From an uncultured Candidatus Saccharibacteria bacterium (GTDB lineage Bacteria; Patescibacteriota; Minisyncoccia; UBA6257; GWB1-50-10), in the NCBI GenBank assembly GCA_964536045.1, contig CAZHWX010000001.1, positions 1-37,278 of the forward strand: 37,278 bases of DNA, in the 5' to 3' direction. How positions within the stretch are numbered: position 1 is the first letter of the stretch; each line of letters opens with the position of its first letter. Under the pieces are notes generated by a model that worked only from the letters and a program-made list of their open reading frames with translations, did not search any database and was not told the DNA's origin. The position numbers and the translations under genes were made by a program. Of this stretch, positions 11,835 to 30,014 are shown piece after piece.

Positions 11835-12572
11835 ATGAAATACTCACACTTAAGCGAGACGGTTTCCATCAAGACGGTTTCGGAGAAAGACAACGTTGGT
11901 GTTTTTCACGTCGAAGGTTTATACACCGGTTATGGTGCAACTTTAGGTACGGCTTTGCGTCGTGCATTGCTTTCGTCTTTGCCGGGTGCAGCTATTACCC
12001 AAATAAAAATTAAGGGTGTAGATCATGAATTTTCTACTTTGCCAGGTATGGTAGAAGATATTGTGGAATTTTGTTTGAATTTAAAAAAGGTTCGTTTTCA
12101 CTTCTTTGCGGATGAGCCACAGGTAGTAACTCTTTCTTTGAAGGGAGAAACTGAGGTGACCGCGGGAGACATTCAATCCAGTCCGTTAGTGCAAGTAGTA
12201 AATACGGATTTACACTTAGCCACCATGACTAAGAAGAATGCAGAATTGGAAATGGAAATCACCGTAGAAAAGGGTTTGGGTTATGTACCTAGCGAAACTC
12301 GCCGTTTAGAGCGTTTACCAGTAGGTACCATAGTTTTGGACTCCTTGTTTTCTCCGGTAGTGCGCGCTGCCGTCTTAGTAGAAAATATGCGCGTAGGGGA
12401 TAGAACGGATTTTAATCGCTTAACTTTAGATGTAGAAACGGATGGTACTATTAGCCCATCGGAGGCGGTTCACAAAGCGGCCAATATTTTGCGTGACCAT
12501 TTTGATAAAGTTTCTCAGATGGAAGTTCAGAAGTTGGAAGTAGAATCCACCAAGAAGGGAAAGAAAAAATAA
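11835..12572 (+). CDS. rpoA: DNA-directed RNA polymerase alpha subunit, N-terminal (assembly) domain only
   Basis: 'GVFHVEGLYTGYGATLGTALRRALLSSLPGAAIT', 'VEDIVEFCLNLKKV' and 'LDSLFSPV' are alpha-NTD motifs. The ORF ends at 245 aa in a Lys-rich tail, and rplQ follows after 26 nt. Confidence 0.9.
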   Translation: MKYSHLSETVSIKTVSEKDNVGVFHVEGLYTGYGATLGTALRRALLSSLPGAAITQIKIKGVDHEFSTLPGMVEDIVEFCLNLKKVRFHFFADEPQVVTLSLKGETEVTAGDIQSSPLVQVVNTDLHLATMTKKNAELEMEITVEKGLGYVPSETRRLERLPVGTIVLDSLFSPVVRAAVLVENMRVGDRTDFNRLTLDVETDGTISPSEAVHKAANILRDHFDKVSQMEVQKLEVESTKKGKKK

Positions 12573-13804: not shown

Positions 13805-14269
13805 ATGAAAATTGCCGTAGTGTTGGTGGATGTGCGGAGTATTGAAAATGTGGGGTCTATTTTTCGCACCGCGGATGGAGCGGGGGTGGAGAAAATTTAT
13901 TTAGGTGGAATTACTCCAACCCCACTTAATCGATTAGGTAAGCCACGAGAGGATCTGGCTAAGGTGGCGTTGGGTGCCGAGACTAGCGTGGCTTGGGAGC
14001 AAGCTCCAAACGTATTAACCCTACTTAAGAAACTTAAAAAAGAAGGTTGGCAGATTTGTGCTATTGAGCAGGATAAAAATTCTAAGAGTTTTAAAAAATT
14101 ACCAAAATCTAGGAAAGTTTTAATTGTGATGGGAACCGAGGTAACTGGGTTACCGAAAAATATTTTGAAAGTTTGTGATGGGATTTATGAAATTCCAATG
14201 AGGGGGAGCAAGGAGTCTTTAAATGTGTCCGTAGCTTTTGGAGTTGCGGTTTATGAAGTTGTTAATTAG
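13805..14269 (+). CDS. SpoU/TrmH-family (SPOUT) RNA 2'-O-methyltransferase
   Basis: 'IENVGSIFRTADGAGVEKIYL', 'LIVMGTEVTGLP' and 'YEIPMRGSKESLNVSVAFGVAVYE' are the three SPOUT/TrmH motifs. The substrate is not assignable. Confidence 0.85.
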   Translation: MKIAVVLVDVRSIENVGSIFRTADGAGVEKIYLGGITPTPLNRLGKPREDLAKVALGAETSVAWEQAPNVLTLLKKLKKEGWQICAIEQDKNSKSFKKLPKSRKVLIVMGTEVTGLPKNILKVCDGIYEIPMRGSKESLNVSVAFGVAVYEVVN

Positions 14270-14341: not shown

Positions 14342-14370
14342 TTGACCAAAAGATAGAGATTTATTAGATT
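14342..14370 (+). promoter_or_regulatory. sigma-70-type promoter TTGACC-17 nt-TAGATT for the tRNA array
   Basis: The -35 lies at 14342-14347 and the -10 at 14365-14370, with a 17-nt spacer. The first tRNA starts 19 nt downstream. Confidence 0.55.
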
Positions 14371-14388: not shown

Positions 14389-14466
14389 GGGGCAAGAGCT
14401 CGGTCGTGGTAGAGCGTCGGACTATTAATCCGGAGGCCGAAGGTTCGAATCCTTCTTGCCCCGCCA
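14389..14466 (+). tRNA. tRNA, Asn-like body, anticodon reads ATT (A34)
   Basis: Hand-folded cloverleaf: acceptor GGGGCAA/TTGCCCC, D arm GCTC-GGTCGTGGTA-GAGC, anticodon arm TCGGA-CTATTAA-TCCGG (anticodon 14424-14426), T arm GAAGG-TTCGAAT-CCTTC, discriminator G, then an encoded CCA. Confidence 0.8.
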
Positions 14467-14538
14467 CGGGGATAGCTCAATTGGGAGAGCGCCACCCTGC
14501 CAGGGTGGAGGTTGGAGGTTCGAGTCCTTCTCCCTGTA
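14466..14538 (+). tRNA. tRNA with anticodon GCC (Gly) but Ala-type acceptor/D-arm identity elements
   Basis: Cloverleaf: acceptor ACGGGGA/TCCCTGT (G3.U70), D arm GCTC-AATTGGGA-GAGC, anticodon arm CCACC-CTGCCAG-GGTGG (anticodon 14499-14501), T arm GGAGG-TTCGAGT-CCTTC, discriminator A. No CCA is encoded. Position 1 is the A of the upstream tRNA's CCA. Confidence 0.8.
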
Positions 14539-14542
14539 CGAA

Positions 14543-14614
14543 ACGAGAATAGCTCAGTGGTAGAGCATCAGAGTGCCACTCTGAAGGTCGGTGGTTCGAA
14601 CCCACTTTCTCGTT
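14543..14614 (+). tRNA. tRNA-Gly (anticodon GCC)
   Basis: Cloverleaf: acceptor ACGAGAA/TTCTCGT, D arm GCTC-AGTGGTA-GAGC, anticodon arm TCAGA-GTGCCAC-TCTGA (anticodon 14575-14577), T arm GGTGG-TTCGAAC-CCACT, discriminator U73. C2:G71 and G3:C70 are consistent with Gly identity. Confidence 0.85.
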
Positions 14615-14619
14615 CGAAA

Positions 14620-14645
14620 GAAGCAGTAGATTTTATTACTGTTTC
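14620..14645 (+). terminator. possible weak terminator/processing hairpin after the tRNA array
   Basis: GAAGCAGTA-(8-nt loop)-TACTGTTTC forms 9 bp with one G.U, followed by AATTT. There is no clean T-run. Confidence 0.3.
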
Positions 14646-14813
14646 AATTTGGGGCGACATAAACAAATATCCTGGTTCGGGGGAAGCTCCCGGTTACGGC
14701 GTGGATGTTTGAGTTATTTTAAATTCTTTGTTTAAGGGAGACCTGCGAGAATTTTTAGTTAGACCCCTGCTGCCTGGTCTTTTTCTAGAAAGGACTGGGC
14801 ATGCAATTATTAA

Positions 14814-14850
14814 TAAAAAAATCCTCACGATATTCGTGATGATTTTTCTT
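14814..14850. terminator. bidirectional rho-independent terminator
   Basis: AAAAAAA-ATCCTCACGA-TAT-TCGTGATGAT-TTTTCTTTT. The hairpin is flanked by an A-run and a T-run. It lies downstream of the tRNA region on the plus strand and 9 nt downstream of the DoxX stop on the minus strand. Confidence 0.7.
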
Positions 14851-28704: not shown

Positions 28705-28734
28705 AACCCGTCTATATGGCGGGTTTTTGTTTTA
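28705..28734 (+). terminator. rho-independent terminator after rseP
   Basis: AACCCGTC-TATAT-GGCGGGTT forms 8 bp with one G.U and is followed by TTTGTTTT. It lies inside the track's N-terminal extension of proS, which argues for the downstream start. Confidence 0.75.
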
Positions 28735-28760
28735 TTCAAAAACTGGATATACTTGGGTTA

Positions 28761-30014
28761 ATGCTCCAATCCAAGCTTTTCCCTAAAACCCTAAAAGAAG
28801 CCCCTAAAGATGAGGTTTCTAGGAACGCCGAACTCTTAATTCGGGCCGGATTTATTAATAAGCTCCAAGCGGGAGTCTATACCCTTTTGCCCTTGGGTTT
28901 ACGAACGGTGAAGAAAATTACGGATATTGTGCGGGAAGAAATGGAAGCAATAAATGGTCAGGAAATTTTGATGCCTGTGCTTCAGCCGAAAGCTAATTGG
29001 GAAGCTACTGGTCGTTGGGATAGTTTAGAAGTTCTTTTTAAATTTATTAGTCCTAACACCAAAATAGAAATGGCCCTTGGTCCAACTCATGAAGAAGTGG
29101 TTACTCCGCTTGCGGATCGCAATTTGTCGTATCAAGATTTACCGTTTTATTTATACCAAATTCAAACTAAGTTTCGGGATGAGGCGAGAGCTAAATCGGG
29201 TATGATGCGGGGCCGGGAGTTTGGAATGAAGGATTTATATTCCTTCCATGTGGATGAAGCGGATTTAGATGCTTATTATGAAAAAGCGACCGAGGCGTAT
29301 CATAAAGTTTTTAGTCGTTTAGGGTTGGGCGATCAAACGTTTTTAACTTTTGCGTCTGGAGGAACATTTTCTAAATATTCTCACGAGTTTCAAACTTTAA
29401 CTTCGGCGGGGGAAGATTTAATTCATTTGTGTCGAACTTGTAAGCTTGCGGTAAATGACGAAATATTTGGCGAACAATCTACGTGTCCGAAGTGTGGTGG
29501 AGCTTTAACGCCGGAGAAGGCTGCAGAAGTTGGAAATATTTTTAAATTAAAAACTAAATATACAGATGCCTTTAATTTGAAATATAAAGCGGCAGATGGT
29601 ACTTCAAAACCGGTAGTAATGGGTTGTTATGGAATAGGCATCACCAGACTTTTAGGGGTAGTAGCAGAAACTCTAAGCGACGATAAGGGTTTAGTTTGGC
29701 CGTCTAATATTTCGCCTTTTGCGGTCCATTTAATTTCTTTGGGAGCGCCCAACGAAGGAGTTAATAAAATGATTGAAGAGGCCAAAAGTTCTTTAGAGTC
29801 TGCTGGCTATGACGTGTTAATTGATGATCGGCAAGATAAGTCGGCAGGAGAGAAATTTGCGGATGCTGATTTGATTGGTTGTACCATTCGATTGGTTTTA
29901 AGTGAGAGACTATTAGCTACTCAAGAAGTTGAAATAAAATTGCGAAATCAGAAAGAAGCAATTAAGGTTAGCGCCGGTGATTTAGTTGCCAGTTTGCGGA
30001 AGTTAGGGGTATAA
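28761..30014 (+). CDS. proS: prolyl-tRNA synthetase, short bacterial-type without INS editing domain
   Basis: 'MLQSKLFPKTLKEAPKDEVSRNAELLIRAGFI' is the canonical ProRS N-terminus. Motif 2 is 'FRDEARAKSGMMRGREFGMKDLYSFH' and motif 3 is 'MGCYGIGITRLLG'. A C-terminal class IIa anticodon-binding domain follows. The product is 417 aa from the ATG at 28761. Confidence 0.9.
   Translation: MLQSKLFPKTLKEAPKDEVSRNAELLIRAGFINKLQAGVYTLLPLGLRTVKKITDIVREEMEAINGQEILMPVLQPKANWEATGRWDSLEVLFKFISPNTKIEMALGPTHEEVVTPLADRNLSYQDLPFYLYQIQTKFRDEARAKSGMMRGREFGMKDLYSFHVDEADLDAYYEKATEAYHKVFSRLGLGDQTFLTFASGGTFSKYSHEFQTLTSAGEDLIHLCRTCKLAVNDEIFGEQSTCPKCGGALTPEKAAEVGNIFKLKTKYTDAFNLKYKAADGTSKPVVMGCYGIGITRLLGVVAETLSDDKGLVWPSNISPFAVHLISLGAPNEGVNKMIEEAKSSLESAGYDVLIDDRQDKSAGEKFADADLIGCTIRLVLSERLLATQEVEIKLRNQKEAIKVSAGDLVASLRKLGV

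Follow-up and report, generated by a model that had tools for sequence, protein, structure and literature searches.

The window analyzed here is a 37,278-nucleotide (nt) stretch of contig CAZHWX010000001.1 from an uncultured Candidatus Saccharibacteria bacterium (assembly GCA_964536045.1, forward strand). It carries an array of three tRNA genes, termed t1, t2 and t3, the second of which joins the G3.U70 pair and the A73 discriminator of tRNA-Ala to the glycine anticodon GCC. Both features are invariant in the t2 orthologues of related lineages, in which the anticodon takes several forms. The interpretation that we favor, tentatively and at somewhat less than an even chance, is that t2 would be charged by alanyl-tRNA synthetase (AlaRS) regardless of its anticodon and would still be used in decoding, making it a lineage-specific missense tRNA.

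Sequence and fold of t2

ARAGORN identified three adjoining tRNA genes on the + strand, at 14389-14466 (ATT), 14466-14539 (GCC) and 14543-14615 (GCC). The central gene was delimited as follows.

t2: 14466 to 14538, + strand; 73-nt tRNA with anticodon GCC (ARAGORN, Rfam tRNA covariance model and RNAfold)

The Rfam tRNA model scored t2 at 64.7 bits (E 5e-12). Covariance-model alignment placed the acceptor strands as ACGGGGA/UCCCUGU, giving the pairs A1-U72, C2-G71, G3.U70 (14468/14535), G4-C69, G5-C68, G6-C67 and A7-U66, with A73 (14538) as the discriminator. The D-arm is GCUC-AAUUGGGA-GAGC, where AAUUGGGA is the D-loop and includes G20. The anticodon arm is CCACC-CUGCCAG-GGUGG, with C35 at 14500 and a C32-G38 pair in the loop CUGCCAG, and the T-arm is GGAGG-UUCGAGU-CCUUC. 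A variable loop of 5 nt and a 7/5 acceptor/T configuration were found by both the covariance-model alignment and RNAfold, whose minimum-free-energy fold was the same cloverleaf. A sequence-only reading of this DNA had described a tRNA with G3.U70, A73, G20 and GCC at these positions, and all of its statements about the sequence were correct; covariance-model folding, which it had suggested could reveal another acceptor pairing, retained G3.U70.

Identical copies of t2 were present in three contigs (L001, L002 and L003) from independent assemblies, comprising two Joint Genome Institute (JGI) metagenomes and one NCBI metagenome assembly. A contig from a second NCBI assembly (L040) differed at one position, C31A, which produces a 31:39 mismatch, and kept C35. 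In a deeply diverged lineage (L011), the 17-nt anticodon arm was identical to that of t2 in the window. Because the gene is identical in three independent assemblies and C35 is found in a fourth, a base-call error at 14500 is excluded. The earlier suggestion that a G at this position would make the gene a plain tRNA-Ala(GGC) was thus contradicted, and the probability that a sequencing or assembly error has disguised such a gene is negligible. Its sole attraction is that GCC lies one base from GGC. Bacterial tRNA-Ala(GGC) conserves A32-U38, while the stem and the 32-38 pair of t2 are glycine-type and its acceptor is without G1-C72 and G2-C71.

Chimeric composition of t2

Reference tRNA sets were built from the IMG/VR viral-contig collection. 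The arm CCACC-UUGCCAA-GGUGG is widespread among tRNA-Gly(GCC), with at least 120 loci in IMG/VR. Among 57 distinct tRNA(GCC) with the anticodon stem of t2, position 3:70 was G-C in 47, A-U in 9, U-A in 1 and G.U in none; U73 was present in 55 and A73 in 2, and the first two pairs were G1-C72 in 54 and C2-G71 in 53. U32-A38 was found in 84 of 86 tRNA-Gly(GCC) references, compared with C32-G38 in t2. The D-arm of t2, TAGCTCANNTGGGAGAGC, had a different distribution. It was present in 98 distinct IMG/VR tRNAs, of which 78 were tRNA-Ala and none was tRNA-Gly. G3.U70 together with A73 was found in 75 of these 78 tRNA-Ala, and G3.U70 was absent from all 20 non-alanine tRNAs with the same D-arm.

Since G.U at 3:70 was found in 0 of the 57 tRNA(GCC) and G3.U70 in 0 of the 20 non-alanine tRNAs sharing the D-arm, the combination of G3.U70/A73 with GCC is far from chance. 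A single tRNA in all of IMG/VR paired this D-arm with a GCC anticodon, and its acceptor was fully glycine-type. The combination of GCC, U70 and A73 was seen in only a few phage tRNAs, each of which has A3-U70. Nearest-neighbor identity of the t2 body against 1227 tRNAs did not single out an isotype, all of which scored 0.74-0.79, and a BLAST search of phage genomes returned generic matches of ~79% to tRNA-Ile and others.

G1-C72 and G2-C71 are conserved in all known cytoplasmic tRNA-Ala, A73, G4-C69 and G20 are bacterial minor determinants of tRNA-Ala, and C2-G71 is a glycine determinant (PMC9976931). t2 has G3.U70, A73, G4-C69 and G20, but A1-U72 and C2-G71 take the place of G1-C72 and G2-C71, and its anticodon is not NGC. 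Of the features of tRNA-Gly, it lacks U73, G1-C72 and G3-C70. By its sequence, t2 is a true chimera with an alanine-type D-arm, a glycine-type anticodon arm and a mixed acceptor. The description of t2 as having an alanine acceptor and body thus held for the D-arm, G3.U70 and A73, but not for 1:72 and 2:71, which are non-alanine and include the glycine determinant C2-G71.

This composition bears on the possibility that, in the lineage of the window, t2 is effectively a glycine tRNA. Under this explanation, glycyl-tRNA synthetase (GlyRS) would charge t2 through C35, C36 and C2-G71, AlaRS would ignore it for want of G1-C72/G2-C71, and G3.U70 would be a tolerated variant of the A3-U70 pair seen in tRNA-Gly of the A73 type. 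Phage tRNA-Gly(GCC) with G1-C72, C2-G71, A3-U70 and A73 do exist, A3-U70 and A73 are also found in the phage tRNA most closely related to the t2 family, and extra GCC decoders could be useful where GGU is the most used glycine codon. However, no reference tRNA(GCC) had G.U at 3:70, and t2 has A1-U72 in place of the G1-C72 that is important for bacterial GlyRS. Further, A73 with G3.U70 would make glycylated t2 a substrate of D-aminoacyl-tRNA deacylase (DTD), for which U73 is an antideterminant (PMC9976931). Together with the orthologues described below, these points make a glycine identity for t2 rather improbable.

A phage-like IMG/VR contig of 194 kb (L046, 10541-10695) encodes a tRNA that is 79% identical to the t2-type tRNA of lineage F, described below. 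It shares the anticodon stem, T-arm and 3' acceptor strand of that tRNA and differs at 3:70 (A3-U70), in the size of its anticodon loop (8 nt) and in its encoded CCA. It adjoins a CUA (amber-suppressor-type) tRNA.

Conservation of t2 and turnover of its anticodon

Syntenic contigs from independent assemblies were gathered with the SpoU protein and ribosomal protein L13 as anchors. The same intergenic site in five further lineages held a promoter, 1-3 tRNAs, a variable hairpin, a structured RNA and a terminator. Array anticodons are listed in gene order.

Lineage A (window, L001, L002, L040): ATT, GCC, GCC; in L003, ATT, GCC, GCA
Lineage B (L004/L005): GCT, CTT
Lineage C (L006-L008): GTC, GCT
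Lineage D (L011): GAA, GCC, CAT
Lineage E (L029): a tRNA with a 10-base-pair (bp) arm and a 5-nt loop, then ATT
Lineage F (L033/L034): CTC only

At 4-fold sites in the flanking genes, the lineages were diverged from one another by 0.38-0.65; they are species- to genus-level relatives, not strains. Orthologues of t2, recognized by the acceptor NNGGGGN/NCCCUGN-A, the D-arm and the T-arm, were present in lineages A, D, C, E and F. Their anticodons were GCC (A), GCC (D), GCU (C), AUU (E) and CUC (F), four kinds in five orthologues and never NGC. G3.U70 and A73 were invariant in all five. Variation was seen at 1:72 (A-U or G-C), 2:71 (C-G or U.G) and 7:66 (A-U or G.U), and G20 was lost in lineage D (U20). 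Glycine-type C35 with C36 occurred only in lineages A and D, with one or both missing from C, E and F.

Despite 53% neutral divergence, the t2 of lineage E, which has the anticodon AUU, matched that of the window at each of the 56 positions that lie beyond the anticodon arm. Conversely, the 17-nt anticodon arm was the same in A and D, which are 63% diverged at neutral sites and have changed D- and T-arms, and all 10 anticodon-stem positions were replaced in C relative to A at 38% divergence. The identity of the arm in A and D and its full replacement in C indicate that the arm was long conserved and then exchanged, on a chassis under strong purifying selection. In lineage C, the replacement has the look of a swapped cassette more than of drift by point changes. 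Nor is there a need to invoke hypermutation of the arm, as the lineages are 38-63% diverged at 4-fold sites. AUU, GCU and GCC recurred on different chassis, and a rough hand estimate gave ~3 such coincidences against ~1 expected, which is not significant.

The 13 distinct array tRNAs had standard pairs in 99.6% of pair cells and compensatory change at 14 of 21 pairs. None of 500 shuffles reached these values, and no register slide came close. Pseudogene status of the array tRNAs was rejected, since their stems are intact with compensatory change and t2 scores well against Rfam. A related explanation, that the array consists of redundant tRNA copies drifting to loss, one of which acquired G3.U70 by a chance transition, would account for the anticodon turnover, gene gain and loss, odd anticodon arms and single-base strain differences, namely GCC to GCA in t3 of L003 and C31A with its 31:39 mismatch in t2 of L040. 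We consider it quite unlikely, because it does not fit the near-complete pairing and abundant compensatory change, the unchanged t2 body at 53% neutral divergence, the conserved promoter and terminator, or the retention of G3.U70 in five lineages.

Collectively, these comparisons suggest that t2 is a heritable identity-mismatched tRNA under selection, not an error. Comparison of the array in related genomes, proposed as a check when the gene was first noted, thus supported the mismatch, with G3.U70/A73 kept in five orthologues whose anticodons are all non-alanine. The idea that t2 is a tRNA-Ala(GGC) one mutation away (G35 to C) was not borne out, as its stem is the common Gly(GCC) stem and its orthologues have GCU, AUU or CUC and none GGC. 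The single-base distance between GCC and GGC is a numerical fact and not a record of how the gene arose.

Neighboring tRNAs of the array

The genes and spacers flanking t2 in the window are as follows.

t1: 14389 to 14463, + strand; anticodon AUU (A34), G8 replacing U8, G73 (ARAGORN; Rfam 63.1 bits)
t1-t2 spacer: 14464 to 14465, + strand; CC, which with A14466 reads CCA in this lineage only, and CT in lineages C, D and E
t2-t3 spacer: 14539 to 14542, + strand; 4 nt, CGAA
t3: 14543 to 14614, + strand; anticodon GCC, U73, C2-G71, G3-C70, A1-U72, G32-C38 (Rfam 66.4 bits)

The CCA at the junction of t1 and t2 had been taken to mean that the two genes overlap by 1 nt. Because the spacer is CT in the other lineages with both genes, the CCA is a coincidence, and the genes are instead separated by a 2-nt spacer.

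The anticodon arm of t1, CGGACU-A-UUAAUCCG, is Asn-like and accompanied by G73. The anticodon ATT was found in 1 of 1668 reference tRNAs, and A34 tRNAs, Arg-ACG excepted, are almost absent from prokaryotes (preprint 10.64898/2026.05.15.725136). The t1 loop CUAUUAA was found again on the t2 chassis of lineage E. Orthologues of t1 carried GAA with A73 (D), GUC with G73 and a 6-bp anticodon stem (C), GCU (B), or a 10-bp arm with a 5-nt loop (E). The first tRNA of lineage B (L004, 9062-9134; GCU) is a mosaic of a t1 acceptor, GGGGCAA/UUGCCCC, with a t2-type D-arm, variable loop and T-arm, which suggests gene conversion between array members.

The characterization of t3 as a conventional tRNA-Gly(GCC) 4 nt downstream held for its U73, C2-G71, G3-C70 and spacing. 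It did not hold for A1-U72 or for G32-C38, a pair found in 0.2% of the 1668 reference tRNAs. In addition, a single base change in a near-identical strain (L003, 919-990) converts the t3 anticodon to GCA (Cys) with U73 retained, the t3 of lineage D (L011, 4196-4267) has a CAU anticodon and G33, and t3 is missing from lineages B, C, E and F. The sequence CGAA(A) directly follows the last array tRNA in five of six lineages, and because of this t3 looks like an insertion between CGAA repeats.

Predicted charging of t2

AlaRS does not read the anticodon. Of the synthetases matching the other anticodons, asparaginyl-tRNA synthetase (AsnRS) needs G73 and seryl-tRNA synthetase (SerRS) needs a long variable arm (identity table, PMC9976931). 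AsnRS is thus mismatched with the AUU form of t2, which has A73, and SerRS with the GCU form, in which a long variable arm is missing. Among the t2 forms, those with GCC are the only ones open to GlyRS. The orthologues with GCU, AUU or CUC, including one with an identical body, would be unusable by GlyRS yet are intact, and 3:70 is G.U in all five, never A-U or G-C; both observations argue against the glycine tRNA explanation, notwithstanding the canonical Gly(GCC) arm that is perfectly conserved between A and D. Judged from these identity elements, AlaRS is the only synthetase compatible with every t2 orthologue, and since the bodies of the lineage E and lineage A genes are identical, they should share a charging enzyme. 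Alanylation of t2 is proposed because AlaRS ignores the anticodon and no other synthetase fits all orthologues.

In the mechanism that we propose, the array would be transcribed from its own promoter, RNase P and 3' processing would release the tRNAs, and CCA would be added. t2 would be alanylated whatever anticodon it has, and the alanylated tRNA would still enter the ribosome. In the lineage of the window, t2 would insert alanine at GGC/GGU, and part of it may be charged with glycine. The strong C32-G38 pair probably makes this decoding inefficient, and together with the non-ideal 1:72 and 2:71 pairs probably weakens t2.

Evidence for and against decoding by array members

All five t2 orthologues have a 7-nt anticodon loop of the form Y32-U33-NNN-A37-R38. 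Within the array, C32-G38 was found only with the GC-rich anticodons GCC, GCU and GUC, and the switch from GCC to AUU was accompanied by a change of G38 to A. Such co-change would be given by a 32-38 pair tuned to anticodon strength. Between lineages A and D, t1 is identical in its anticodon stem and at positions 32, 33, 37 and 38, and differs at all three anticodon bases. Its discriminator changes with the anticodon, G73 with AUU and A73 with GAA, which fits the identity rules for Asn and Phe (PMC9976931).

Several observations weigh against a missense role for t2. A C32-G38 or G32-C38 pair was found in 6 of 13 array tRNAs, versus 1.3% of the 1668 references, and RNAfold shut the loops of these members to three nt. 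Decoding features have been lost from the first tRNA of lineage E (10-bp arm and 5-nt loop), t3 of lineage D (G33), the first tRNA of lineage C (C37 and a 6-bp stem) and the single tRNA of lineage F (6-bp stem), so that the array as a whole would appear to tolerate non-decoders. With respect to charging, AlaRS may act poorly on t2, which is missing G1-C72/G2-C71 and carries the glycine determinant C2-G71, and because phage tRNA-Gly(GCC) with A3-U70/A73 exist, U70 and A73 by themselves are no decisive argument against glycine identity. GGU is the commonest glycine codon in the window (33 per 1000 codons), so the cell would pay a high price for efficient Gly-to-Ala decoding. Wherever the array was found, the structured RNA lay downstream of it, a hint that the array takes part in the maturation of that RNA. 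Finally, the comparison comprises six lineages that are not independent.

Many of these observations would be explained if the array members were non-decoding tRNA-shaped modules, serving as RNase P/RNase Z processing and stability "punctuation" for the downstream RNA, or if t2 supplied alanine, as alanyl-tRNA, to a reaction outside the ribosome, for example the aminoacylation of cell wall or lipids. The anticodon would then be free to change. Consistent with this explanation, the anticodon differs in nearly every lineage, gene number ranges from 1 to 3 by lineage, and near-identical strains differ in the anticodon arm (GCA in L003, C31A in L040). The four tRNAs with arm or loop defects are clearly unable to decode, the same structured RNA always follows the array in one promoter-terminator unit, and dedicated non-decoding tRNA-Gly species are known in Staphylococcus (PMC7826273). 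Other odd features of the array include G33 and C37, which are rare in the 1668 references (0.2% and 0.3%); in addition, position 8 is G or A in some members, the anticodon stem has 6 bp in two, and one has a 10-bp arm closed by a pentaloop.

However, drift should have destroyed loops that serve no decoding function, and the five t2 orthologues keep a 7-nt loop, U33 and A37. The arm shared by A and D has survived 63% neutral divergence, and position 38 changes with the anticodon. For processing alone, the acceptor and T arms would suffice, which leaves the conservation of the D-arm and of G3.U70 unaccounted for. Among the genes of the 37-kb window there is no tRNA-dependent transferase, of the Fem type or otherwise. 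A non-decoding array or alanine donor is an unlikely explanation, if the likeliest of the alternatives. Taken together, the evidence favors an array in which most members probably decode and some have been inactivated, with t2 as a putative alanine-charged missense tRNA.

Transcription unit and structured RNA

The remaining elements of the unit are as follows.

Promoter: 14342 to 14370, + strand; sigma-70-like, TTGACC, 17-nt spacer, TAGATT, ~20 nt 5' of t1 (consensus scan)
Variable hairpin: 14620 to 14645, + strand; directly after the last tRNA, with stem letters that differ among lineages and pairing that is kept (alignment)
Structured RNA of no assigned class: 14651 to 14806, + strand; ~155 nt, with P1 (GGGGCGAC / GUUAGACCCC) around two hairpins, then a 3' hairpin
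Terminator: 14825 to 14849, + strand; intrinsic and bidirectional, ending the tRNA-noncoding RNA unit and serving the opposite-strand doxX, conserved in all lineages

The promoter block TTGAC...TTATTAGATTAGGT is conserved in lineages A, B and C, altered in D and E, and different in F. From the shared promoter-terminator unit, the array and the structured RNA are predicted to be strongly promoted and co-transcribed. Orthologues of the structured RNA are present in L004, L006, L011, L029 and L033, and RNAalifold on the six lineages gave 54 pairs in the structured RNA, 12 of them compensatory, with many + strand-specific G.U pairs. No Rfam family matched it at gathering or E-value thresholds, even at E<=10, in the three lineages searched, and no conserved small open reading frame (ORF), 3' end like that of transfer-messenger RNA or motif like that of the signal recognition particle RNA was seen by eye. 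A pattern for its core, run against genome and metagenome contig collections, returned only chance matches in unrelated high-GC genes. Because this valid pattern gave chance matches only, the lineage of the window is absent from those collections. Lineages B, C and E have an extra insertion of hairpins, ~90 nt in length, upstream of the terminator.

Genomic setting

The window is a cellular contig of 40% G+C. Its genes include a ribosomal-protein/rpoA operon, a SpoU/TrmH methylase (13805-14269), the tRNA array, the opposite-strand doxX and pentose-phosphate genes, together with MreB/MreC/PBP2, prolyl-, lysyl- and seryl-tRNA synthetases (ProRS, LysRS and SerRS) and Tgt. The closest named SpoU homologues are from Paceibacteria/Parcubacteria, of the Candidate Phyla Radiation (CPR). 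In a Paceibacteria-like clade, the array occupies a fixed site with the SpoU methylase gene on one side and doxX on the other. The Pfam/NCBIfam-labelled ORFs of the window include neither AlaRS nor a paralogue of it; the only synthetases among them are ProRS, LysRS and SerRS, 14-22 kb away. No tRNA was found beyond the array in the window or in the syntenic contigs of 6-40 kb.

In lineages B and C (L004, 2913-8523; L006, 3650-9984), a branched-chain-type ATP-binding cassette (ABC) transporter cluster of ~6 kb, not present in the window, lies between rpsI and the SpoU gene, which indicates a neighborhood prone to rearrangement. Many independent contigs (L009, L010, L030-L032, L038) end ~50-70 nt past the SpoU stop, ahead of the array, and those of L003 and L008 terminate within the array unit. 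Contig ends at the array would be expected if co-existing strains differ there, breaking the assembly graph.

The ProRS of the window (28716-30014) has 432 amino acids (aa) and matched the bacterial type in two separate stretches, below full-length cut-offs; it appears to be without the INS editing domain, which clears Ala-tRNA-Pro. RpoA (11835-12572; 245 aa) has N-terminal and insert domains, with no alpha C-terminal domain reported by Pfam. In third codon positions, the window strongly favors U relative to C (GGT 364 versus GGC 79, AAT 367 versus AAC 70, TGT 44 versus TGC 3, AGT 137 versus AGC 35), and AAU makes up 84% of Asn codons. GC skew on the + strand is persistently positive over the whole window.

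Implications

Natural tRNAs in which charging identity and anticodon disagree are raw material for genetic-code change and regulated mistranslation. To our knowledge, there are few bacterial examples, namely allo-tRNAs, tRNAProX and selenocysteine/cysteine (Sec/Cys) hybrids. The present locus has an ordinary 7/5 cloverleaf, an alanine signature, a fixed chromosomal site and an anticodon that has been swapped several times among close relatives. A comparative experiment is thereby built in, as each lineage predicts its own X-to-Ala proteome signature. The locus also bears on the tolerance of AlaRS for changes at 1:72 and 2:71, on A34 tRNAs, which prokaryotes almost never keep, and on an uncharacterized structured RNA that always accompanies the array.

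A bolder proposal is that this CPR clade keeps a strongly promoted operon of "retargetable" tRNAs, in which a G3.U70/A73 chassis of alanine identity repeatedly receives other anticodon arms. On this view, the reading of GGY, AGY, AAU or GAG partly as alanine would be deliberate and would differ among sister lineages, an evolvable form of ambiguous decoding that might be controlled by, or matured with, the structured RNA. We regard this extended proposal as speculative and on balance improbable.

Comparison with known systems

Allo-tRNAs and polycistrons of irregular tRNAs occur in Acidobacteria and other bacteria, and a G3:U70 subset of allo-tRNAs with non-alanine anticodons inserts alanine in Escherichia coli (PMC5389517). 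Their anticodons cover 35 codons, some members are seemingly inactive in translation, and their role was left as unknown in that work (PMC5389517, Mukai et al. 2017). Like the array described here, allo-tRNAs are extra bacterial tRNAs with anticodon-independent identity and diverse anticodons that occur in polycistrons. However, they have an 8/4 or 9/3 acceptor branch of 12 bp and a long variable arm, whereas the array tRNAs are canonical 7/5 with a 5-nt variable loop. They are also often found near toxin-antitoxin genes, in contrast to the fixed site of the array beside a ribosomal-protein operon and before a structured RNA.

Canonical bacterial tRNA-Ala shares G3.U70, A73, G4-C69, G20 and the D-arm with t2, but has G-C at both 1:72 and 2:71 and an NGC anticodon. 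At these places t2 has A-U, C-G and GCC, on a Gly(GCC) stem and with anticodons that vary among orthologues. Canonical tRNA-Gly(GCC) shares C35, C36, C2-G71, the stem CCACC/GGUGG and a Watson-Crick-capable 32-38 position with t2, which differs from it in A73, G3.U70, A1-U72, C32-G38 and a D-loop with G20.

Reassignment of CUG to alanine in yeast is carried out by tRNA-Ala(CAG). In humans, tRNA-Ala anticodon variants and G3:U70 variants of tRNA-Gly(GCC), tRNA-Cys and tRNA-Thr combine G3:U70 with a non-alanine anticodon and give alanine misincorporation (PMC12084884, PMC11415595). These eukaryotic cases are population variants or concern one fixed codon, whereas t2 is bacterial, fixed within lineages and paired with a codon that differs between sisters. 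tRNAProX/ProRSx of Streptomyces (PMC10404621, PMC11415595) resembles t2 in its genomic mismatch between anticodon and amino acid, its conservation within a clade and its several anticodon variants. tRNAProX has a dedicated synthetase paralogue nearby; the window encodes no AlaRS paralogue, and the housekeeping AlaRS would suffice.

The non-proteinogenic tRNA-Gly genes of Staphylococcus (PMC7826273) and tRNA-Other of Bacillus cereus (cited in PMC5389517) are, like the array, extra genes with a conserved body diverted from normal decoding. The staphylococcal tRNAs keep their cognate anticodon, which GlyRS needs, and no tRNA-dependent transferase is evident in the window. Thus, t2 is neither a canonical tRNA-Ala nor a canonical tRNA-Gly, lies outside the structural definition of allo-tRNAs, and is without a synthetase of the tRNAProX type.

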